Shown: positions 1-14,854 of the stretch, in pieces
Position numbering within the stretch: position 1 is the stretch's first letter
Layout: each line of letters starts with the position of its first letter
UHGV virus genome: UHGV-0122456
DNA: 14,854 nt
Reading direction: 5' to 3' (one strand)
From: a virus
Notes under the pieces: model-generated
Told to the model about the DNA's origin: nothing
The model's input: only the letters and a program-made list of their open reading frames with translations
The model's database searches: none
Made by a program: the position numbers and the translations under genes

Positions 1-158
1 AGCTGGCGGGATGTGATATGGCACGCAAGGCTATCAAGGCGAGCTGCCATTGCTTCAGCTCTTGCCCGGCGTTCTTCCAGACGAGCCTCTGTCAGTAAAA
101 TATTAAGCCCTGCATCATCCGGTCCGGTTTTAGTCGTGAGGGTTTCAATATTACGCAT
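1..158 (-). CDS. Hypothetical phage early protein, N-terminal part only (gene runs off the window start)
   Basis: ATG at 158..156 preceded by AGGAG about 8 nt upstream on the - strand. Open frame to the window edge reads MRNIETLTTKTGPDDAGLNILLTEARLEERRARAEAMAARLDSLACHITSRQ. Same strand and operon direction as apl/cII. Confidence 0.4.
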   Translation of the reverse strand, partial: MRNIETLTTKTGPDDAGLNILLTEARLEERRARAEAMAARLDSLACHITSRQ

Positions 159-225
159 AATCAATTCTCCTGAATTTAGGTAAAGGGATACCCGGCGTGT
201 TTACGCCATGAAGTTCATTAGTTTG

Positions 226-567
226 TTAATTCGGCATGGTTAGTCGTCTGGGGAATAAGCTCACTACTGCACGAAAATGATTCATTGCTTTAATCAACTC
301 CCGCTTTTCGTCAGTGGTCAGCTCATTAATGCTGATGCTGTGACGTTCAGCTGGAATTTTTGCCATAAAGAATATGGCAGCCAGTGCCCGTTTATTTTGT
401 TCGCTATTGATATCCCGTGGATCACGCATATCTTTAATAAACCGCTCAAGCTCTGACTCAATATTCAGGCCAAAAACTTTCGCCCTTAACTCCGCAATAT
501 GATTAAGTCCATTCAGGCGTTCACCGGGGCTTAATGGAACAGTTGCTGCAGCGCCATTAATTGCCAT
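226..567 (-). CDS. Hypothetical early-operon protein (113 aa)
   Basis: Supplied ORF, co-oriented with cII/apl in the early operon, protein-like composition. Shine-Dalgarno is weak. No family recognised. Confidence 0.5.
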   Translation of the reverse strand: MAINGAAATVPLSPGERLNGLNHIAELRAKVFGLNIESELERFIKDMRDPRDINSEQNKRALAAIFFMAKIPAERHSISINELTTDEKRELIKAMNHFRAVVSLFPRRLTMPN

Positions 568-589
568 AATTCATATTCCCAAAACGCAA

Positions 590-814
590 CTATCGTTCTT
601 TGTTCTTACGGTAACGTTCAAGAGGAGATACATTTTTTCGTATCGTCTCTTTAACCTGCTCTCCCCGTAAAAACGTCCCATCCCTTAGCGTGAAAAAGTA
701 ACTGCCATCGCCCGACAACGACGGATAACAACAGAGCAAATCATCTTCAGGTACTGAATAACTCTCCCCTCTGTAACGAAACTGATAAACCACTTCACTT
801 TCCGCTGCATACAT
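590..814 (-). CDS. Hypothetical early-operon protein (74 aa)
   Basis: ATG at 814 preceded by GGAGAAAG on the - strand, a strong RBS. Overlaps the alternative ORF 685..981 in another frame. Confidence 0.45.
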   Translation of the reverse strand: MYAAESEVVYQFRYRGESYSVPEDDLLCCYPSLSGDGSYFFTLRDGTFLRGEQVKETIRKNVSPLERYRKNKER

Positions 815-981
815 TTTGACTTTCTCCGTTTCCTCGTGGTCAATTCAGACAGCAATTCATCTTGTGAATGACATGGATGCCAGCGTTTCCCATCCTCACC
901 CATGATCCAGCCGTGACCGTAGTGCATTGCCGGGCTTTGTTTTACCAGCAGCGATGCAAATGATGGTTCTTTCTTCAGCAT
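685..981 (-). CDS. Hypothetical early-operon protein (about 98 aa from the internal ATG at 981); alternative or overlapping gene call
   Basis: Internal ATG at 981 preceded by GAGGTG. The N-terminal 55 aa look protein-like, but the C-terminal part overlaps ORF 590..814 and is Cys/Arg-rich like out-of-frame sequence. May reflect a frameshift or nested gene. Confidence 0.3.
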   Translation of the reverse strand: MLKKEPSFASLLVKQSPAMHYGHGWIMGEDGKRWHPCHSQDELLSELTTRKRRKSKCMQRKVKWFISFVTEGRVIQYLKMICSVVIRRCRAMAVTFSR

Positions 982-988
982 AAGCACC

Positions 989-1498
989 TCACAGCAAACC
1001 GAATGAAGCACCGAGGCCAGTCACGGTATCAACTGCACTCACCATCGCAGGGTTAGCCTGTAAACGGGCCTGCAATGAAACAGCAGCCAGCGCCATCAGT
1101 CGTGTTACAGAGTTAATGCTGCTGATAGCATCACGACGACCTGCACTGGTTTTTACATCTCCAGATACCGCACCTGCAGCAACACGCCCGATCTCTGCGG
1201 TTGCACTCATGACGTAATGCGGCAGTTTCTCTTTTGCTACCTCATTAATCGGTACACATGGCAGGCAGTGAATCTGTGCCAGAAAACCATCTATCAGCGT
1301 TGAATCTTCAGTCAGATCGGTAAGCAGCCAGATTTCTGGCGCATTTAGCTGATGCGGTTGATCTGGGTTGAGTTTGTTTCGCAAAGTCTGGACATTCATT
1401 CCTGCACGTTCTGCCAGCTTCGCCATATTGTGACGAAGTGCAAAAGCTCTACAGGCTTCATCAAAATGCGGGTGTTTGGAAATCTTATAATCAAACAT
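989..1498 (-). CDS. cII: CII-like lysogeny-establishment transcriptional activator (phage 186 CII family)
   Basis: 169 aa. N-terminus MFDYKISKHPHFDEACRAFALRHNMAKLAERAGMNVQTLRNKLNP matches my memory of 186 CII, including an HTH-like segment. Sits immediately downstream of apl. RBS AAGGGGG before the ATG. Confidence 0.75.
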   Translation of the reverse strand: MFDYKISKHPHFDEACRAFALRHNMAKLAERAGMNVQTLRNKLNPDQPHQLNAPEIWLLTDLTEDSTLIDGFLAQIHCLPCVPINEVAKEKLPHYVMSATAEIGRVAAGAVSGDVKTSAGRRDAISSINSVTRLMALAAVSLQARLQANPAMVSAVDTVTGLGASFGLL

Positions 1499-1530
1499 GC
1501 TACCCCCTTAGAAAGTTCTCATAATTGAAC

Positions 1531-1773
1531 TTACTTACCAACAATGACGCGGAAGTTGGAATGACCGAGGGATTCACGGACCTGATCGGTTTTGTACATT
1601 AAATAACGCAGGCTTACGCGGCCTTTGTTTTTTTCTTTCTTGACCATGTATTTAGCAAGCTGACCATGGTGAATTTTTTGATACACGGAGCCGCGGGAGA
1701 TACCTTCCCATTCCGCGAACTCTGCAGGCGTAGCCATCTCTTTTGGTACACGAATTGAAATATCAGTGCTCAT
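1531..1773 (-). CDS. apl: Apl/Cox-like excisionase and switch regulator
   Basis: 80-aa basic protein, first gene of the early operon, divergent from the repressor gene. This is the position of 186 apl / P2 cox. RBS GGGAGA upstream of the ATG. Confidence 0.7.
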   Translation of the reverse strand: MSTDISIRVPKEMATPAEFAEWEGISRGSVYQKIHHGQLAKYMVKKEKNKGRVSLRYLMYKTDQVRESLGHSNFRVIVGK

Positions 1774-1892
1774 AGTGCAGTATCTCCCGATTAAGGTTTG
1801 GTTTACGTCGTTTTATCTCGTTTTACTTGATTCAATATTTGATACATCTAGATACTACGATCCAATATTTGATACGTCAACAGGATTAAAAA
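1774..1892. promoter_or_regulatory. Lysis-lysogeny switch region (early/lytic and lysogenic promoters with operator repeats)
   Basis: Intergenic between divergent apl and cI. 13-bp direct repeat CAATATTTGATAC at 1833..1845 and 1863..1875 (30 bp apart), a third GATAC at 1851..1855, and tandem CGTTTTA-type repeats at 1809..1828. Confidence 0.5.
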
Positions 1893-2525
1893 ATGATACA
1901 GGTAAAGGCTGGAGAGAATACAGGGGGAAGAGAGGCTATCCATAGACTAATGGCAGCCTATGATTTCAAGTCCAGACAGCAACTTTGCGATCACTTAGGC
2001 GCATCAAAAAGTACCATGGCAAACAGATACTTAAGAGATAGTTTTCCTGCAGAGTGGGTGATTCAGTGCGCCTTGGAAACAGGAGTTTCTTTACTGTGGC
2101 TAACCACCGGACAGGGGGAGCCAGGTTCAAACATTGAACCCAAAAAAAATATCAATTCCGTGAACTCCAGCAAGGTTATACCTCTTTCTGAACTAGTATC
2201 TCCTGAAATTGACAAGGCGACTCTCAACGGTGGTTTATTGATCGATGCTGGAAAAGCAATCATTGATAGCAGCATACTCCCCTCAAACTCAAGCAACCTA
2301 CTGCTGGTGACTACTTCTGGTGATTCTTATTTAATAGATCGCAACCAAACACCACTAGTAAATGGTATGTGGTTAGTCGATATCGACGGGATAAAAAGCA
2401 TTGTTAAATTGACTCGACTCCCGGGAAACAAATTAGTAGTGCATCAGGATGATTCATCGTTTGAGTGCGGCCTGGATGACATTGAGGTAGTAGGCCGCGC
2501 ACTGAAAATCATTAAGAGCCTTTGA
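1893..2525 (+). CDS. cI: Immunity repressor CI (phage 186 CI family)
   Basis: 210 aa. N-terminal HTH region with NRY..........CALETG..L.WL.TG.GE and C-terminal GMWLVDIDG..SI..LTRLPG.KL......FECG.DDI..VGR match my recollection of 186 CI. Directly upstream of int, as in 186/P2. Confidence 0.85.
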   Translation: MIQVKAGENTGGREAIHRLMAAYDFKSRQQLCDHLGASKSTMANRYLRDSFPAEWVIQCALETGVSLLWLTTGQGEPGSNIEPKKNINSVNSSKVIPLSELVSPEIDKATLNGGLLIDAGKAIIDSSILPSNSSNLLLVTTSGDSYLIDRNQTPLVNGMWLVDIDGIKSIVKLTRLPGNKLVVHQDDSSFECGLDDIEVVGRALKIIKSL

Positions 2526-2526
2526 T

Positions 2527-3555
2527 ATGACCATCAGAAAACAGCCGAACGGAAAATGGTTGTGTGAGTGCTATCCCAATGGACGCAATGGCAAGCGCGT
2601 GCGTAAGCAATTTGCCACGAAAGGCGAAGCCATTGCGTTTGAAAGCTTCACAATGGAAGAAGTGAATAAAAAACCGTGGTTGGGTGAAAAGGATGATCGG
2701 CGACGCCTATCAGAGTTAATTGAGCTTTGGTATTCCCTGTATGGTCAGACACTCGCAGACCCCAAGCGCCTCATGGCGAAACTTAGAATTATCTGTAATG
2801 GTCTAGGCGACCCCATCGCCTCAGAACTGACAGCCGGAGACTTTACGAAATACCGCGAAGCACGGTTAAAAGGTGACCTTCGTAACGAAGACGGCACACT
2901 AATGTCGCCAGTAAAACCACGCACGGTGAATCTTGAGCAACGTAACCTATCATCGGTTTTCGGCACATTGAAAAAACTAGGCCACTGGTCAGCACCAAAT
3001 CCTCTCGTCGGGCTGCCAACATTTAAAATCGCTGAGGGTGAACTAGCATTCCTGACCCCGGAAGAAATTAAACGCCTACTGGATGCCTGTGCTGATTCTC
3101 AGAGTCCCAGTCTGTTGATGATTGCAAAAATATGCCTAGCAACTGGTGCCCGATGGAGTGAAGCAGAAAACCTGCAAGGGCATCAGTTATCAAAATATCG
3201 CATTACTTATACCAAGACCAAAGGTAAAAAAAACCGAACCGTTCCAATATCTCAAGAACTGTATGACGAACTACCTAAAAACAGGGGGAGATTATTTACC
3301 CCATGCAGAAAATCCTTTGAGCGTGCAGTAAAGCGAGCCGGTATCGAACTGCCAGAGGGCCAGTGCACCCACGTACTGCGCCATACATTCGCCAGCCATT
3401 TTATGATGAACGGCGGAAATATACTGGTACTGCGCGATATTCTGGGCCATGCTGATATAAAAATGACGATGGTTTACGCTCACTTTGCCCCTGATCACTT
3501 GGAAGATGCTGTAACAAAAAATCCACTTTACAAATTAGACTGGAAAAAAGCATGA
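2527..3555 (+). CDS. int: Tyrosine integrase (P2/186 Int family)
   Basis: 342 aa. C-terminal catalytic region TGARWSEA ... HVLRHTFASHFMMNGGNILVLRDILGH ... MVYAHFAP with Arg, His-x-x-Arg and Tyr closely resembles P2 Int. Lies next to the att core. Confidence 0.95.
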   Translation: MTIRKQPNGKWLCECYPNGRNGKRVRKQFATKGEAIAFESFTMEEVNKKPWLGEKDDRRRLSELIELWYSLYGQTLADPKRLMAKLRIICNGLGDPIASELTAGDFTKYREARLKGDLRNEDGTLMSPVKPRTVNLEQRNLSSVFGTLKKLGHWSAPNPLVGLPTFKIAEGELAFLTPEEIKRLLDACADSQSPSLLMIAKICLATGARWSEAENLQGHQLSKYRITYTKTKGKKNRTVPISQELYDELPKNRGRLFTPCRKSFERAVKRAGIELPEGQCTHVLRHTFASHFMMNGGNILVLRDILGHADIKMTMVYAHFAPDHLEDAVTKNPLYKLDWKKA

Positions 3556-4535
3556 CCCTTTATTCATCAATTGGCATTATGTTCTATGTTGTAATGTTAA
3601 TATACATATTGTATTTAACATATAAATACAAGTGGTATTTATTAAATGAACAAAACCTTATAAAACAGAAATTATTCTGGTTATCAATCGGAATACCAGT
3701 ATTATCATTCTTTTATTTTGGGATTTTCGCATGGTGGGGCAAGGTCCCGGTGTTAAGTGCCCACGGCTATACTCGCTTTTACGAAATCAGTAAATTCCCT
3801 CTAATGCTGCTAGCCAGTTCAGTACCTCTTGGAGCTATAGTTAAGAATATTCACAGGACCATTCAAACAGAGACGCAGCTTTCAAGGACAGAGCATCAAA
3901 TAGAGCTGGTAAAAGCAAAAAATAAATCTGATTCATTTTATGCCCACCAGAAGAGTTATGCCGATATTTTTAAAACTGTCCCTTCATTTATCGTTAGTAG
4001 AGAGTTTACCGAACACGATGATGGAAAAAAATATATAGAACCTTCCATTTCTCACCCTTATATTCTTTACATGAATATTTTTACAAAATCCTCTATTGAA
4101 GAAGGCTATAGCAAAGAAATAAGTTCATTATTTATGGGTAGAGTTCAAGATTATTATAAGAATATCAACAAAGCTATTAAAAGCTGTTACAACAAAGAGA
4201 CTTCTTATGATATCCAAGTGATTTCCCTTCAAATGCTCGAAATCAATATTATCCAACTTTGCAGAGAATTAGGGATCGACTATCGATATGAAAAACATGA
4301 GTTTATTCTTTTTGACTCCATTGAAGAAAAACCCTTCACCACTTCTTTCTCTGATGAAAAACAAATAAAGCAAATGGTCACTGGATTGCGCGAGCTGTTA
4401 GTTCATGTTTATATGCTGATTGGCTTAAGCCCTGAGGTCTTCCAAACGCCAAAAGGGCTATGGGACTTTATCCCTGACTATGGCAATGATTGCTCTAAGC
4501 TCTACCCAGCAATTCTACCTGCTGATAGGAATTAG
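3552..4535 (+). CDS. AT-rich cargo gene: membrane protein of unknown function (327 aa)
   Basis: ATG at 3552 overlaps the int stop as ATGA. Two to three N-terminal hydrophobic helices (about residues 7-24, 41-62, 82-97) followed by a roughly 230-aa K/E/Y/S-rich soluble domain. DNA is much more AT-rich than the flanking phage genes. No family recognised. Confidence 0.75.
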   Translation: MTLYSSIGIMFYVVMLIYILYLTYKYKWYLLNEQNLIKQKLFWLSIGIPVLSFFYFGIFAWWGKVPVLSAHGYTRFYEISKFPLMLLASSVPLGAIVKNIHRTIQTETQLSRTEHQIELVKAKNKSDSFYAHQKSYADIFKTVPSFIVSREFTEHDDGKKYIEPSISHPYILYMNIFTKSSIEEGYSKEISSLFMGRVQDYYKNINKAIKSCYNKETSYDIQVISLQMLEINIIQLCRELGIDYRYEKHEFILFDSIEEKPFTTSFSDEKQIKQMVTGLRELLVHVYMLIGLSPEVFQTPKGLWDFIPDYGNDCSKLYPAILPADRN

Positions 4536-4651
4536 CAATGGCGACAACTTGGCGGCAGAGCATTAAAAATGTGTAAAACCGACAAAAACAAAATAACACT
4601 AACGTACTGTTTTAAAACATAAATATATGTTTTTATTATAGTCAAAATGGT

Positions 4652-4696
4652 ATGTAGGAATTTCGGACGCGGGTTCAACTCCCGCCAGCTCCACCA
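4652..4696 (+). other. attP core: about 45-bp copy of the 3' end of the tmRNA gene ssrA (tRNA-like T-arm and acceptor CCA end); not a complete RNA gene
   Basis: ATGTAGGAATTTCGGACGCGGGTTCAACTCCCGCCAGCTCCACCA matches the 3' terminus of enterobacterial ssrA as I remember it. No ssrA 5' portion lies upstream; upstream is AT-rich phage DNA. Confidence 0.8.
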
Positions 4697-4706
4697 AATA
4701 AAACAA

Positions 4707-4819: not shown

Positions 4820-5302
4820 ATGGAAGAACTTCACTTTGTTTACATCAATGCAAATGGTCGTATCGGAGTTCACTCAATACAGAGCATCAGTTATAGCGAA
4901 AATCATATACAGGGCATTTGTAAGAACACCGATCGAATAAAAACCTTCCGAAAAGACCGCATTCTTAAACAGTACGATTCACCAGAACAAGCCATTCAGG
5001 AATGCGCGTCATTCCTCCCCGAAAACTACTCACATCTCACTAAGCAGTCTGGTCCGAAAAAAAATACATTCGATGTGTGTTTCACCGGATTTAAGAAAGC
5101 AGATAAAGAAAGATTGGTTGATAAGGCGAATGAACAAGGATTAACGGTAAGAACCTCTGTAACCCAAAGCCTTCAGATGCTCTGTTGCGGTTACAATGCT
5201 GGCCCATCAAAAGTATCGGCAGCCAGGATGAAAGGCACAATCATCATAGATGAGCCTGGCTTTATACATTTTCTTGAAACGGGTGAGATCCCAGATGAAT
5301 AA
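4820..5302 (+). CDS. Small cargo protein with C-terminal BRCT-like domain (160 aa)
   Basis: RBS AAGAGG 7 nt before the ATG. C-terminal about 80 aa (DVCFTGF...RLV...GLTV..SV...L.CCGYNAGPSKVSAARMKGTIIIDEPGFIHFL) follows the pattern of the LigA C-terminal BRCT domain. N-terminal 60-aa domain unassigned. Confidence 0.7.
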   Translation: MEELHFVYINANGRIGVHSIQSISYSENHIQGICKNTDRIKTFRKDRILKQYDSPEQAIQECASFLPENYSHLTKQSGPKKNTFDVCFTGFKKADKERLVDKANEQGLTVRTSVTQSLQMLCCGYNAGPSKVSAARMKGTIIIDEPGFIHFLETGEIPDE

Positions 5303-5330: not shown

Positions 5331-5547
5331 AAAAATTCATATGCCCCTGACCACCTGGCAATGGATGTGGAGGAGCAGTAGCAATCAGTGCGGGTGTCAC
5401 AATAAACCTGACCACTGTTTCATGGGTAACAAAAGTGCTCCCGCAGTTAATATTTTGGCACTGGCAGTAACGCTCTTTGGTGCTTTCAGTTACTTGAAAA
5501 CTGCTCCTTGTGTGTGCCGCATGACCACACTTTGGACAATTCATCAT
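5329..5547 (-). CDS. ogr: Ogr/B-type zinc-finger late-gene transcriptional activator
   Basis: MMNCPKCGHAAHTRSSF...YCQCQNINCGSTF has the Cys4 motif and about 72-aa length of P2 Ogr. I start it at the internal Met (5547 or 5544), not the 87-aa ORF start at 5592. Confidence 0.85.
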   Translation of the reverse strand: MMNCPKCGHAAHTRSSFQVTESTKERYCQCQNINCGSTFVTHETVVRFIVTPALIATAPPHPLPGGQGHMNF

Positions 5548-5615
5548 ATCCAGATCCCTACCTTTGCTATCAGAATCATTGTAATGATACACATAATATC
5601 AATATTGAGAACACT

Positions 5616-6716
5616 TTATTCCATTTCAAGATCATCAATCTTCACTTCGAGTTCAATACTGGTTGTAAAACCGTTATCCGGGCTGACGGTATGTGTCAGA
5701 GTCGTAATGGTCCATTCCGCATCATCTATCGGCTGTTTAAAACCACTGACTTTCACTGGCATTTCCGTGTAGAGATCTGCCCGACCTTCCGCCAGTTGTA
5801 GCGAGAATGACGCAACGCCGCGTTGCAGGCGTTCCCACTGCATTTTCGCCGCTCGTTCGGCGTTGCTCCGGTTGGCATAAGTGCGATTAAGTACCAGCAC
5901 GTTTTCATCCGTACCCACCAGGTAATCGCCCTGCTTCGCTTCCGTCTCTTTCTTCTGCTTCTTAGTCCTGCGCTTACGCTTCACCGTGGTGCTTTCTTTC
6001 TTCGAGGGTTCGCGAGTATGCAACCAGCTGGCAATTACGCCCGTGTAAGCTCCGCGATCTGCCAGGGTAAAGCGGTGACTGTCGCCGTCCTTACGTGTGA
6101 TAGTGATCACCGGTAGTGGTTTACCGCTGGCGCTTTTACCCTGTCCCTGTCGGATGAATAACAGATTGCCATTTTTCACCGACGCAATAGCACCGTACTG
6201 GCGCGCCAACCGCATCAGAAAACTGCCGTCACTCTCATTGGTCTGGTCTATATGTTCCACGGGTTTATCTGACAGGTCTTTACCCAATGTCATCTTCAGT
6301 TTGTGCCGCGCAGCTATTTCCTTCACCACTTCCCCAACGGTGGTCTTGTGCCACGACTTTTCACGGCGGGTATTCAGCGTTTCACGAAAATCAGCACTTC
6401 GCGCCCGGATAGTCAGGCGGTCCGGTGCGCCAGTGTGTTCAATCTCGTCCACCGTGAATGTCCCTTTCGGGAAAAGCGGCTGCCCCTTCCAGCCCAGCGC
6501 CAGCGTAATGACCGCACCACGGCGCGGCAGCACGATTTTTCCGTCGGCGTCGTCCAGCTCCAGATCAAGCTGGTCCGCGTCAAAGCCCCGATTGTCCGTC
6601 AACGTCAGACTCATCAGACGGTTATCCAGCACAGTAGTGATATCCCTGCCCTCAATACTGATGCTGAATGCGGGAGTTTTGTTGCCTTTGTTAAGCAGTT
6701 CAGAGCTGAAATTCAC
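5616..6716 (-). CDS. D: Tail protein D (late control gene D family)
   Basis: 366 aa, in the P2 gpD position between U and ogr. 4-bp overlap with U. Confidence 0.85.
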   Translation of the reverse strand: MNFSSELLNKGNKTPAFSISIEGRDITTVLDNRLMSLTLTDNRGFDADQLDLELDDADGKIVLPRRGAVITLALGWKGQPLFPKGTFTVDEIEHTGAPDRLTIRARSADFRETLNTRREKSWHKTTVGEVVKEIAARHKLKMTLGKDLSDKPVEHIDQTNESDGSFLMRLARQYGAIASVKNGNLLFIRQGQGKSASGKPLPVITITRKDGDSHRFTLADRGAYTGVIASWLHTREPSKKESTTVKRKRRTKKQKKETEAKQGDYLVGTDENVLVLNRTYANRSNAERAAKMQWERLQRGVASFSLQLAEGRADLYTEMPVKVSGFKQPIDDAEWTITTLTHTVSPDNGFTTSIELEVKIDDLEME

Positions 6717-11280: not shown

Positions 11281-12453
11281 TTACGCGCTGACCTGGCTGG
11301 CAAAATTCACCAGGTACTGATCGGTGATGCGCTGGCGCAGCATCAGATTTTCAAGTGGCGGCACTGGCGTGTAGTCATAGTCGATGGTGAGTTTTCCGGC
11401 TTTCAGCGTGTCTTTATCGTTCACCGACTCATCCAGCCAGCAATCACCACCAATGAGATAGCCCTGACTGACCAGGCTGCGCATTTTGGCGCGGATACCT
11501 TCGATAATGTCGCGGGCCAGCGACGGGTTAAGAGGTTTATCCACCGCCCACATGTGTGCTTCTGCAATCGTGTCCATCAGCACCTGCGCCGTGCGGGTGT
11601 AGTTTTCGAAGGCAAAGAGCGGGTCATCACTCAAGCAGCGGGAACCCCAGAAGCGGAAACCGTCTTTACGCACAAGCGTGGTGACGTCGTTCTGGTTCAG
11701 CAGACCTGCATCAGTTGCCGGGTCCTGCAGATCCCAGAACACATCAGCAGAAATTCCGGTGACACCGTTCACGCCCACGTTGGACAGGCTTTTGTGCCAT
11801 CCAGTCTGCTCATCAATTTTGGCGCGCAGACCAAGCGCACGGGCGGTGGCATATGCCGTTGCTTCGGCATTCAGTACCGTGTCCCAGCCAGTAAAGTCAG
11901 GCCAGATCAGCATCCCTTCGCGCTGGCTGAAGTTTTCACGGTAAGTGATCGCCTCCTGTATCGTCTTGCAGCCATACGCTGACAGGTAAGCAAACCCACG
12001 CAGGCTTTGCGCCACGCTCAGCAACTCAGTAGCTACCGCCTTGGTGTCGTGACCAGGTACACCCAGAATGCGTGGTTTAACGCCGAGCTGTGAATGAGCA
12101 GATAACAGGGCTTTCATGCCAGTTTTTTTACCTTCAGCGGTCACTGCGCCGATGATATTGGTCGTGGTTTCTTCTTCCGTTTCACCCTGCGGCACACGCA
12201 CAACAACGGTCACGGGTTTTGCCTGGTCAGCGATGGCATCCAGCGAACGGGCCAGAGTACCGGACTCACCCGCTTTACCGCTGGCAGTCAGCACATCAGT
12301 GATCAGCACGGGTTTATTAAGAGGAAACATTTTTGCATCGGCATCATCGCCCGTGCAGACCATACCCACGATGGCGGTGCTCACCGTGGTAATGGATCGG
12401 GTGCCTTCGTTGACTTCAACAACGCGCACCCCGTGGTGGTAATCCTGAGCCAT
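11281..12453 (-). CDS. FI: Contractile tail sheath protein FI
   Basis: 390 aa, matching P2 FI in size and position as first gene of the FI-FII-E-T-U-D operon. Confidence 0.9.
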
Positions 12454-12529
12454 AGTGGCGAACCTCCTGATTGGATTAGGCTTCGCCCTATGTTGAAGTG
12501 ATTGTGCCTGACAAACAGCTAAGCGCAGT

Positions 12530-12547
12530 TGTGTCGTTATTCACACA
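12530..12547 (-). promoter_or_regulatory. Candidate Ogr-dependent late promoter element (TGT-N12-ACA dyad) upstream of FI
   Basis: TGTGTCGTTATTCACACA = TGT-N12-ACA, centred about 85 bp upstream of the FI ATG. P2 late promoters carry this dyad near -55. Confidence 0.35.
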
Positions 12548-12595
12548 AAATAACGGTATTTGTCTGCTTGCAGGGATAATCAACTTAATGCTGAT

Positions 12596-13168
12596 TCAGG
12601 GGGATTCATTGATCTTATTTGCCGGAAATTTTCTATAAATGGTAGAAACGCCTACATCAAAAATCAGTGCAATACGCTGTCTTGATTCTCCGGCCTCGAG
12701 TAAACGCCCAATCTGTGCCCACTGTTCGGTGGTCAACTTAGGACGGCGTCCACCTACTCTGCCTTTGGCACGAGCTGCAGCCAGCCCTGCCCTAGTACGT
12801 TCAACTATCAGTTCGCGCTCCATTTCAGCCAGGGCACCCATGACATGAAAAAAGAAACGGCCCATTGGGGTACTGGTATCAATACTGTCAGTCAGGCTTC
12901 TGAAATTCACACCACGCTGGCGTAACTCTTCTATCAGCGTAACAAGATGCCGCATACTGCGCCCCACCCTGTCCAGCTTCCAGACAACCAGCGTGCCTCC
13001 TGCCGATAGTGTCCTGAGCAGTTTTTTCAGCCCCGGTCTGTCGGACTTAGTGCCGCTGATTTTATCCTCAAAAATCCGCTCACATCCCGCGCAGTTCAGC
13101 GCACTACGTTGCAAATCGGTGTTCTGGTCATTTGTTGACACGCGTACATAGCCAATAAGCATGATCAT
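12596..13168 (-). CDS. Serine DNA invertase (Hin/Gin/Cin/Pin family)
   Basis: 190 aa. N-terminal catalytic region LIGYVRVSTNDQNTDLQR, then LVVWKLDRVGRSMRHL, C-terminal HTH; closely resembles my recollection of E. coli Pin. True start may be the Met at 13162. Confidence 0.9.
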   Translation of the reverse strand: MIMLIGYVRVSTNDQNTDLQRSALNCAGCERIFEDKISGTKSDRPGLKKLLRTLSAGGTLVVWKLDRVGRSMRHLVTLIEELRQRGVNFRSLTDSIDTSTPMGRFFFHVMGALAEMERELIVERTRAGLAAARAKGRVGGRRPKLTTEQWAQIGRLLEAGESRQRIALIFDVGVSTIYRKFPANKINESP

Positions 13169-13189
13169 CTCCTTGAATAAAAATCGGGG

Positions 13190-13684
13190 ATGATGCCAGT
13201 TAGTCGTAATCGCTGCATTTTCTTAAACGTTGGTTTGGGAGAAGCGGCAAAACGGAATGTGGGCAACGGGGAAAACCAAATCCCTGATATGTCTTTCTGG
13301 ACGGTTACTGGTGGCAATGGAAATTTTGTGATTCGTCAACCTGACGGGCTAATCATTCAGATGGTTACTGTAAGTATAAGCGGTCCAGTGGCGATGAATG
13401 GAATGACTGATAATGCTTATGCCATTACAGGTTCTAATAAGTCTTATATTGCCACAGCCACATTGCCCTTTGTATTTCCTAATAAGGTACTGGGCGTTAT
13501 CCCTCTGGTATCAACAACAGCTTATGGTGGTGTATCCAGTAATATTACAGGTTCATACGCGACGGCGGTTTGTTCTTTTGCCGCTGTCAGGGGGAATAAT
13601 ACGATTGTGTTCAAAGTCGACAAACCACTGAATGCAGCCTTTCCTTCAGATACCAGCGTCTCAGCGTTAATCATTGGACGGTAA
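13190..13684 (+). CDS. Alternative tail-fibre C-terminal cassette (Sv'-like), expressed only after inversion
   Basis: Open frame with no convincing independent start that crosses the crossover site in frame. Gly/Thr/Ser/Asn-rich like fibre tips. Followed 3 bp later by a tail fibre assembly gene. Confidence 0.55.
   Translation: MMPVSRNRCIFLNVGLGEAAKRNVGNGENQIPDMSFWTVTGGNGNFVIRQPDGLIIQMVTVSISGPVAMNGMTDNAYAITGSNKSYIATATLPFVFPNKVLGVIPLVSTTAYGGVSSNITGSYATAVCSFAAVRGNNTIVFKVDKPLNAAFPSDTSVSALIIGR
13218..13243. other. Candidate invertase crossover site (gix/hix-like), left boundary of the invertible segment
   Basis: TTTTCTTAAACG-TT-GGTTTGGGAGAA: two imperfect inverted 12-bp half-sites around a TT core, resembling hixL TTCTTGAAAACC-AA-GGTTTTTGATAA. 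About 50 bp upstream of the invertase start and inside the fibre cassette frame. Confidence 0.5.
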
Positions 13685-13686
13685 GA

Positions 13687-14130
13687 ATGAACTCAGTATT
13701 CTTTTCACCCGCAAGTAAAAGTTTTTATCTGCAAGAATTGTTTCCAGAATATGAGGATGCGGGAACGCTTCCTGATGATGTTATTGAAATTACCAGAGAA
13801 ACATATGAGCAATTTCTTGGGCTGCATCCAGAAGGGAAAGAAATTGGCGCTGACAGTTCAGGATGGCCAATATGGATTAATTCCCCGCCGCCTTCAAAAG
13901 AGGATGAGATGCTGGCGGCTGAAATGAAAAAGATATCTTTGGTTTCAGAAGTCAATACCTACATCAATACCCATCAGTGGCCTGGCAAAGCTGCTATTGG
14001 TCGTCTGAAAGGTTACGAGCTGGAACAATATAATTTATGGCTGGATTATCTGGACGCACTGGAACTGGTTGATACCTCCAGTGCTCCAGATATTGAATGG
14101 CCTACGCCTCCGGTAGTTCAGGCCAGATGA
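13687..14130 (+). CDS. Tail fibre assembly protein (alternative, U'-like)
   Basis: 147 aa. C-terminal LWLDYLDALELVDTSSAPDIEWPTPP parallels the C-terminus of the convergent gene (LDYIDAVTATDTSTAPDVIWPELP), the conserved tail fibre assembly motif. Confidence 0.85.
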   Translation: MNSVFFSPASKSFYLQELFPEYEDAGTLPDDVIEITRETYEQFLGLHPEGKEIGADSSGWPIWINSPPPSKEDEMLAAEMKKISLVSEVNTYINTHQWPGKAAIGRLKGYELEQYNLWLDYLDALELVDTSSAPDIEWPTPPVVQAR

Positions 14131-14707
14131 CATCCGGCGCGGTACTGGTATCTGTTGCAGTCACCGCGTCAATGTAATCCAGCACAGCGTTAAGCCGGGT
14201 TGTTTCTGCCTGCGTCAGCTTCCGCCCGGCCTGCAATTTCAGCTGAATCAGACTAATGGAAGCCATAGCAGCATCAATCAGTGACTGGCGCCGTACTTCT
14301 GCCGCGTCTACTGCGGCGTTATGCTGTGCCTCAGTATCGGTCACCCATTTCTCACCATCCCATTTATCGTATGACGTTAACGGGGCGATAGTGGTTGTAT
14401 TTTCAGGGTAATCACCCGGAGCGGTGATTTCTTTTGATTCTCCTGTTTTGGTGCTATAGACCGTTTCACCGCGATGGTCTGGCACATATTCCCATGAGTT
14501 AAAATCTGCAGAACGGCAAATTGCATAACCAGCTTTATATGAGCCAGGAGCATCTAAACAGGAACATGCCGGGATACCGACACCCACAGCAAGATATTCA
14601 GTTGATGTGGAAATATATTCCCGTGTTTCACCATCATAATTATAAACGGTAATGTCTCCGGCCTTTGTGGCGATGAGTTCATTATTTAATACAGCTTTAC
14701 TTATCAT
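14102..14707 (-). CDS. Tail fibre assembly protein (U/G-like)
   Basis: 201 aa with the conserved C-terminal motif. Its ATG overlaps the stop of the upstream fibre gene as ATGA. Confidence 0.85.
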   Translation of the reverse strand: MISKAVLNNELIATKAGDITVYNYDGETREYISTSTEYLAVGVGIPACSCLDAPGSYKAGYAICRSADFNSWEYVPDHRGETVYSTKTGESKEITAPGDYPENTTTIAPLTSYDKWDGEKWVTDTEAQHNAAVDAAEVRRQSLIDAAMASISLIQLKLQAGRKLTQAETTRLNAVLDYIDAVTATDTSTAPDVIWPELPEA

Positions 14708-14854
14708 GCAGCCCTCACAATATAATTAAAGGCGATGTTACGGGAGCGGGTTTCAGATGCTGTGCGAACTGAGCGAGATGCGTCGAATGTCCAGTTATAA
14801 GCGCCATAACCCTCAATAATTTCGGCTTCCTTTAGACCTGTAGATAATACTTGC
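14704..14854 (-). CDS. Tail fibre protein, C-terminal end of the variable part (3' partial; gene begins beyond the window end)
   Basis: - strand frame open from the window edge: ...QVLSTGLKEAEIIEGYGAYNWTFDASRSVRTASETRSRNIAFNYIVRAA, stop TGA at 14706..14704 overlapping the assembly gene ATG. Confidence 0.6.
   Translation of the reverse strand, partial: QVLSTGLKEAEIIEGYGAYNWTFDASRSVRTASETRSRNIAFNYIVRAA

Follow-up and report, generated by a model that had tools for sequence, protein, structure and literature searches.

Gene content of positions 12596 to 14854

The window, that is the whole stretch of DNA analysed here (14,854 nucleotides), is an entire metagenome contig of approximately 3x coverage which ends at position 14854. 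Its open reading frames, together with the Pfam matches to sheath and Ogr/Delta, give the P2-like late-gene order H-G ... FI FII E T U D ogr, which matches that of P2 and is annotated likewise in a relative. Positions 12596-14854 hold a serine invertase, one 26-bp site, a silent fibre cassette with its assembly gene, and an expressed fibre cassette with its assembly gene, all of which are real and lie at or very near the coordinates originally given. The original prediction of a Pin/Gin-like serine invertase beside two convergent assembly genes and two opposed cassettes agrees with both the Pfam matches and the open reading frame coordinates, and the predicted placement of this module between the fibre genes and FI is the same in the P2-like phages named in the final section.

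On the minus strand, the contig holds the last part of fibre gene H (14704..14854), which runs off its end and is collinear with the corresponding 3' end of H (506 aa) in the closest relative, a prophage of E. coli C2 (98.3% identity). This is cassette A, the currently expressed tip, and it is followed by a TfaE-like assembly gene on the same strand (14102..14707; Caudo_TAP, 2.5e-32), with the start ATG of the latter overlapping the H stop codon as ATGA. The silent C-terminal cassette B (13190..13684, plus strand) matches the Pfam family Gp53-like_C at 24.1 bits (5.2e-05), just below the cut-off, and is paired with an assembly gene (13687..14130, plus strand; Caudo_TAP, 7.8e-28) which is silent in the present orientation; each fibre cassette is thus followed by a Caudo_TAP gene. 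The two assembly genes share 92.5% (14102..14707) and 54% (13687..14130) identity with TfaE and TfaP of prophage e14, respectively. They were predicted to overlap antisense by 29 bp (14102..14130), which was confirmed from the coordinates, and the same 29-bp overlap is found between e14 tfaP and tfaE, in E. coli C2 and in Peduovirus magyaro.

The invertase and the silent fibre cassette

The invertase open reading frame spans 12596..13168 (minus strand) and has an upstream ATG at 13168, but alignment with Gin, Cin and PinE makes 13162 the likely start, resulting in a Pin-type serine DNA invertase of 188 aa (12596..13162, minus strand) with Resolvase (2.9e-51) and HTH_7 (1.4e-15) matches in Pfam. 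The protein shares 85% of its residues with PinE of prophage e14, 76% with Cin and 73.5% with Gin, and aligns full-length with the structure of Mu Gin (PDB 3uj3, E=1.5e-90) with the Ser9 nucleophile in register, while R7, D64, R65 and R68 align with the catalytic R8, D67, R68 and R71 of gamma-delta resolvase. A simple scan for a sigma-70 promoter of the invertase gave nothing informative. Within the 5' part of the gene, positions 13073..13144 align with the enhancer annotated in P1 (cin nt 19-90) and form a putative equivalent of the Fis-dependent recombinational enhancer; the 76% identity is no higher than that of the surrounding coding sequence, and loose matches to the Fis consensus fall in columns of the alignment where cin and gin have them too. 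We infer that inversion would depend on Fis and on an enhancer inside the invertase gene.

This particular invertase sequence was found on this contig only, among about 15 billion proteins. Comparison with ten full-length cluster members, PinE, Cin, Gin and the C2 copy showed that D56G and L66V differ from all full-length relatives examined, and that N20S differs from all except P0008, which also has S20. These substitutions may be sequencing errors, as single-base errors are possible at approximately 3x coverage, or may impair the enzyme, and they matter only if real. It is conceivable, though unlikely, that the region has the architecture of a switch but that this copy is frozen, with the three substitutions having inactivated or destabilised the invertase and the phage being stuck with cassette A unless a Din-family invertase of the host acts in trans. 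L66 does lie within the LDRLGR catalytic motif, and D56 corresponds by alignment to D59 of Tn3 resolvase, a residue listed as conserved across most serine recombinases and of which the D59N mutant was insoluble. Against a frozen copy, the open reading frame is intact, with every residue known to act in catalysis retained. Din invertases complement each other, and hence the segment could still flip even if its own enzyme were impaired.

With regard to the silent cassette, the original prediction placed the crossover site (13218..13243) inside the frame of a start-less cassette at 13190..13684. The site does lie in this frame, but the cassette is not strictly start-less, since two ATGs, at 13190 and 13193, are found ahead of the site and a short way outside the invertible segment, and the RefSeq homologue is annotated as a separate CDS ('hypothetical protein'). 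This raises the alternative that 13190..13684 is no promoter-less cassette but a gene in its own right, with a start codon of its own, in line with PGAP calling a CDS there in both orientations and with the exact 163-aa product being recorded on 523 contigs. We consider this very improbable: a TAA stop at 13178-13180 leaves the frame open for a mere 37 nt ahead of the site, a simple scan for sigma-70 promoters gave none facing rightward upstream of 13190..13684, and 24 complete E. coli genomes encode full-length fibres that end in the same sequence. Being outside the segment, the ATG at 13190 or 13193 heads whichever cassette is silent, and the annotated S' CDS of Mu likewise starts just outside the boundary of the G segment. 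There is a marginally smaller chance, and hence a very low one, that the frame from these ATGs through the crossover site is translated and yields, in the phage or lysogen, the non-displayed receptor-binding tip as a free domain; if so, such a domain could, for example, mask a receptor or exclude related phages, and 'silent' would be the wrong word for the cassette.

Crossover sites and inversion in relatives

The 26-bp crossover site (13218..13243) belongs to the pix/cix/gix family and consists of two imperfect 12-bp inverted half-sites flanking a 2-bp core, TT at 13230-13231 (sequence TTTTCTTAAACG TT GGTTTGGGAGAA). It marks the invertase-proximal end of the invertible segment (13231..14854), the right end of which is cut by the end of the contig; of cassette B, the part from 13232 onwards lies inside the segment. 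The site had been described as gix/hix-like with a TT core, and alignment bears this out, with 25/26 positions shared with the e14 site next to pinE, 19/26 with P1 cixL and 17/26 with Mu gixR, where the cix and gix sites were taken from records with annotated crossover points and the e14 site was found by motif search. It is located upstream of the invertase as predicted, although at 56 bp from the start codon at 13162 rather than at 50 bp. The central motif has one match in the window versus 0.5 expected by chance, and as this is not significant, the evidential weight of the site comes from its position, its 25/26 identity with the e14 site and the breakpoints of natural inversions, not from motif statistics.

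A second site was expected beyond 14854. Because the contig ends there, the partner had to be sought in relatives, an exact-protein look-up for DNA past this point having led back to this 14,854-bp contig alone. The C2 prophage contains the inverted copy inside fibre gene H, at the equivalent of window positions 15163..15188 and approximately 310 bp past the contig end, with core AA versus TT and an identical inner half-site, and this short site is the sole inverted repeat common to both segment ends in that relative. The segment measures approximately 1.93-1.95 kb in relatives (6778..8722 in L001, 1933 bp in L008 and L009), so that about 320 bp is missing from the contig. No third, shufflon-like crossover site was found in either the window, which has a single site, or the relative, which has a single pair. 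When inversion was simulated at the 2-bp cores, the reading frame was kept, with approximately 350 constant H residues joined to the 13190..13684 cassette as a 500-aa H', compared with 506 aa for H in C2.

The predicted inversion was followed up by looking for both orientations in complete genomes of relatives, and both occur. The flipped arrangement is present in complete E. coli genomes L003 and L004, which both encode a 500-aa H arranged exactly as in the simulation, with cassette B as its C-terminus, and collinearity with the flipped relatives switches between window positions 13230 and 13244. Among complete E. coli genomes the junction of H with cassette A is intact in 108, and that with cassette B in 24. 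The pig isolates 1504D004 and 1604D011 (L008 and L009) both have a chromosome of 5,198,112 bp, and over the 12 kb compared their differences are confined to the inverted segment, with 0 mismatches in the approximately 10 kb of flanking sequence. A brute-force test for an exact inversion failed on this pair because of 16 internal mismatches, and segment alignment resolved it as a reversed segment of 1933 bp. Inversion in P2-like prophages of EPEC has been detected by sequencing (PMC4272514), and invertases with inverted neighbouring genes have been noted at the same P2 hotspot (bioRxiv 10.1101/2024.10.15.618418). That the near-palindrome is a chance match and the differences in orientation reflect homologous recombination or assembly artefacts is supported by the ordinary statistics of the central motif alone in the window, but is extremely unlikely given the identity with the e14 site, the breakpoints inside a 15-bp shared half-site in independent genomes, and an inverted repeat at the segment ends that is too short for RecA-mediated exchange.

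We therefore put the probability at roughly 90% that this region represents an invertible tail-fibre segment of the Pin type (Din family), carried by a P2-like temperate phage of E. coli. The invertase (12596-13162, minus strand) would bind the two inverted 26-bp sites, at 13218-13243 and inside H, and together with a Fis-bound enhancer, presumably located near the 5' end of the invertase gene itself, would cut both at the central TT/AA, with rotation and rejoining flipping approximately 1.9 kb. Each flip would swap the last approximately 150-156 codons of H as well as the cognate assembly (chaperone) gene following them. The contig would represent the state in which the collar-type cassette A and the TfaE-like chaperone are joined to H and neither the gp53-like cassette B nor its chaperone is expressed, with the invertase copy of the contig inferred to be active. 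Two types of virion with different receptor-binding tips, and thus with different host ranges, would be the expected outcome.

Comparison with known invertible segments

One of the closest known systems is the P segment of e14, which has the same order of fibre N-terminus, cassette, tfa, inverted tfa, inverted cassette and invertase, and shares with the window the high identities of PinE (85%), TfaE (92.5%) and the invertase-proximal site (25/26), as well as the 29-bp tfa/tfa overlap. The two differ in that e14 is a lambdoid defective prophage of E. coli K-12, whereas the segment described here resides in a P2-like myovirus, and in their cassettes: the full 506-aa H of C2 aligns to e14 StfE over residues 346-506 with only 55% identity, the cassette B-associated assembly protein is only 54% identical to TfaP, and there is no detectable similarity between cassette B and e14 StfP. 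The G segment of Mu resembles the window in its layout (Sc / Sv U U' S'v / gin), in an invertase gene pointing away from the segment, in a crossover point approximately 67-68 bp from the invertase start, and in its invertase, with Gin being 73.5% identical and its solved structure aligning fully. In contrast, the gix core is TC/GA rather than TT, the site matches at only 17/26 positions, the Mu assembly genes do not overlap and the cassettes are unrelated. The P1 C segment has the TT/AA core, a cixL site identical at 19/26 positions, a 76% identical Cin and an enhancer annotated inside the 5' part of its invertase gene, but it measures 4.2 kb, and cin points toward the segment with cixL overlapping its 3' end.

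Among P2-like phages, Peduovirus magyaro (NC_041848), Escherichia phage 500465-1, Klebsiella phage KP12 and the P2-like prophages of EPEC E2348/69 all carry the module between H/G-type fibre genes and FI, with an annotated DNA invertase and two assembly genes, and differ from the window in cassette sequences only. Canonical P2 has fun(Z) at the position of the module and no invertase, and the region upstream of FI was too divergent from the annotated P2 pF for the alignment to be useful. Multi-site systems (p15B Min, the three-site EPEC P2-like locus and the Rci shufflons) have at least three sites and so more than two arrangements, versus the single pair in the relative examined here, and the shufflons further differ in using a tyrosine recombinase instead of a serine enzyme.

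This kind of device is thus already well known, and there is nothing new at 12596-14854; its significance is limited to that of another example of the textbook way in which a Din-family invertase varies tail fibres and host range, located at a hotspot already known for its variability in P2-like phages. Judging by the G segment of Mu, the C segment of P1 and the P segment of e14, the swap of fibre tips probably shifts the host range of this phage. There is also value for annotation, as the RefSeq 'hypothetical protein' beside the invertase in many genomes is in fact the fibre's alternative C-terminus, and an inversion of approximately 1.9 kb is a legitimate difference between assemblies of such phages.

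A P2-like phage contig spanning attP

The sequence is an entire metagenome contig (ENA ERZ783489, NODE_545_length_14854_cov_3.07) with a coverage of about 3x, and derives from a P2-like phage. Its 186-type early genes (CII, CI and integrase) are located at 989-3555, and a partial tmRNA copy comprising the 3' part of ssrA, the expected attP core, is found at 4521-4697 (Rfam 33 bits, below the gathering score). With the integrase on one side of this copy and ogr/D on the other, the contig spans attP, and therefore represents a phage that integrates into ssrA, in its excised, circular or virion form. One end of a prophage in E. coli SCU-106 is collinear with positions 1-4697. Two cargo ORFs on the + strand flank attP, both without Pfam match: 3552-4535 (327 aa), which overlaps the integrase stop, and 4820-5302 (160 aa), which gave a weak PADLOC match (PDC-S48, 1.8e-7) and nothing else. 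In the relative H153, the features under the match include an anti-phage dCTP deaminase.

The − strand carries ogr, then D, U, T, E, FII (tube) and FI (sheath, 11281-12453), and the invertase/fibre module fills the remainder of the contig (12596-14854), between the fibre genes and FI, a position occupied by fun(Z) in canonical P2. The invertase is followed by a 142-bp gap containing a TGT-N12-ACA dyad (12530-12547), located 86 bp upstream of the start of FI, with a placement resembling that of the activator site for Ogr in the P2 pF promoter; by itself the pattern is not significant (3 matches vs 4.2 expected), and the dyad region did not align with P2 pF.

Invertase, crossover sites and segment orientation

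The Pin/Gin-like serine invertase of the original prediction is a small serine recombinase on the − strand (ORF 12596-13168; Pfam Resolvase 2.9e-51, HTH_7 1.4e-15), with 85% identity to PinE of the defective E. coli K-12 prophage e14 and lower identities to P1 Cin (76%) and Mu Gin (73.5%). In a full-length alignment with the solved structure of Mu Gin (3uj3, E=1.5e-90), the nucleophile Ser9 is present. While the gene is as predicted, its start is likely the ATG at 13162, where the alignments with Gin, Cin and PinE all begin; this would give a protein of 188 aa, the length annotated by RefSeq in relatives.

The predicted 26-bp crossover site is present at 13218-13243 (TTTTCTTAAACG-TT-GGTTTGGGAGAA), and was aligned with reference sites drawn from public records, of which those for cixL and gixR carry annotated crossover points. 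It matches the e14 pinE-proximal site at 25/26 positions, P1 cixL at 19/26 and Mu gixR at 17/26, and the TT core is common to the window site, cix and the e14 sites; the central motif alone is not significant (1 occurrence in the window vs 0.5 expected). The core is located ~68 bp from the invertase start codon, with the invertase gene directed away from the segment. The contig ends before the position of the second site and can never show it itself, hence the closest complete relative, the prophage in E. coli C2, was used (98.3% identity over 12454-14854). The best inverted repeat of the C2 region pairs the site with TTCTCCCAAACC-AA-GGTATGTGAGAA inside the tail-fibre gene H, at the equivalent of window positions 15163-15188, about 310 bp beyond the contig end, where a partner past 14854 had been expected. 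The inner half-sites of both C2 sites are identical and the cores are TT vs AA, i.e. inverted. In silico inversion of C2, cut at the cores (1945 bp), changes H from 506 aa to an intact protein of 500 aa, of which the final ~150 residues are the 13190-13684 cassette (cassette B). A single site was found in the window, and a single pair in C2; this is not a shufflon or other multi-site system.

A 1-kb query across the simulated flipped junction gave a one-piece match in two complete E. coli chromosomes (97.7-97.8%), each with the same P2-like prophage and the predicted fibre gene of 500 aa. Relative to the flipped form in the SW070919 genome (L003), collinearity of the window extends to 13244 and inversion starts at 13230, placing the exchange within 15 bp which hold the core and inner half-site. 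Among complete E. coli genomes, intact junctions join the constant part of H to cassette B in 24 cases, and to cassette A, the C-terminal tip joined to H in the contig, in 108. Isolates 1504D004 and 1604D011 were both obtained from pig faeces at one location, and their chromosomes each measure 5,198,112 bp. They are identical over about 10 kb of flanks, with the 1933-bp segment between the two sites reversed. The original observation is confirmed, and its interpretation as a switch is supported. Between these isolates there are 16 mismatches at locus positions ~5460-6350, confined to the cassette B/tfaB half of the segment, the flanks being free of them; they could reflect gene conversion, or else an artefact of polishing caused by mixed orientations or by a paralogous prophage.

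Fibre cassettes and related systems

Both tail-fibre assembly genes match Caudo_TAP and are convergent as predicted (13687-14130, +; TfaE-like, 14102-14707, −), with the described 29-bp antisense overlap at 14102-14130. An identical overlap is found in e14 (tfaP/tfaE), E. coli C2 and Peduovirus magyaro, and it is a family trait rather than a peculiarity of this contig. The 3' end of H runs from the contig end to the stop at 14704-14706, which overlaps the TfaE-like gene start as ATGA. The expressed position is occupied by cassette A and the TfaE-like chaperone, and the silent position by cassette B and its chaperone. Cassette B (ORF 13190-13684, +) is gp53-like, with a match close to threshold for the Gp53-like fibre C-terminal domain, and does hold the crossover site in frame; it is not literally start-less as had been described, having its ATG outside the invertible segment. 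PGAP calls a CDS from this ATG in both orientations (window 13190-13243; L003 5440-5949), and as a result, mis-annotation of the silent cassette as a protein of its own ('hypothetical protein' or 'phage tail protein') is routine.

The e14 P segment with pinE is the closest relative of the module. The last ~160 residues of C2 H align with e14 StfE at 55% identity, and the TfaE-like chaperone is 92.5% identical to e14 TfaE; the cassette B chaperone is 54% identical to TfaP, and cassette B resembles none of the e14, Mu or P1 cassettes. The Mu G segment has the same layout and site core-to-invertase geometry (67 bp in Mu), and the P1 C segment the same site core. The same module is annotated at the same position in the P2-like phages Peduovirus magyaro, 500465-1 and Klebsiella phage KP12. 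Inversion was shown by whole-genome sequencing in P2-like prophages of EPEC E2348/69 (PMC4272514), and a phage-hotspot survey noted, at this P2 locus, invertases whose neighbouring genes were inverted (bioRxiv 10.1101/2024.10.15.618418); the invertible tail-fibre feature is already known.

Invertase substitutions and proposed mechanism

Among about 15 billion proteins, the exact invertase sequence was found in this contig alone, whereas the cassette B ORF is present in 523 contigs. Compared with its closest relative it has the changes N20S, Q29R, D56G and L66V (codons 20, 29, 56 and 66; window 12965-13105). In a comparison with ten full-length cluster members, the C2 copy, PinE, Cin and Gin, D56G and L66V are unlike every full-length relative, and N20S is unlike all except one (P0008). 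The aligned residues of gamma-delta/Tn3 resolvase are D59 (for D56) and L69 (for L66, within the LDRLGR motif); gamma-delta resolvase also keeps both residues. D59 is listed as conserved in most serine recombinases, and the Tn3 D59N protein is very insoluble (PMC2794168). Given the coverage of about 3x, the substitutions could be base-call errors, and need re-checking in this copy; real substitutions might impair the enzyme. In either case, the module has the architecture of a switch. Din invertases can replace one another.

By the mechanism established for Gin, Hin, Cin and Pin, dimers of the invertase would bind both sites on supercoiled DNA, and an enhancer within the 5' part of its gene, bound by Fis, would assemble the synaptic complex. 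This Fis/enhancer step is presumed from those systems, and the equivalent of the annotated P1 enhancer (13073-13144) has 76% identity, no higher than the adjacent coding sequence. The 2-bp core would be cut at each site, followed by subunit rotation and religation. Every flip would place the other cassette and its cognate assembly gene behind the ~350 constant H codons in the late operon and, by analogy with the known systems, may thereby switch host range.
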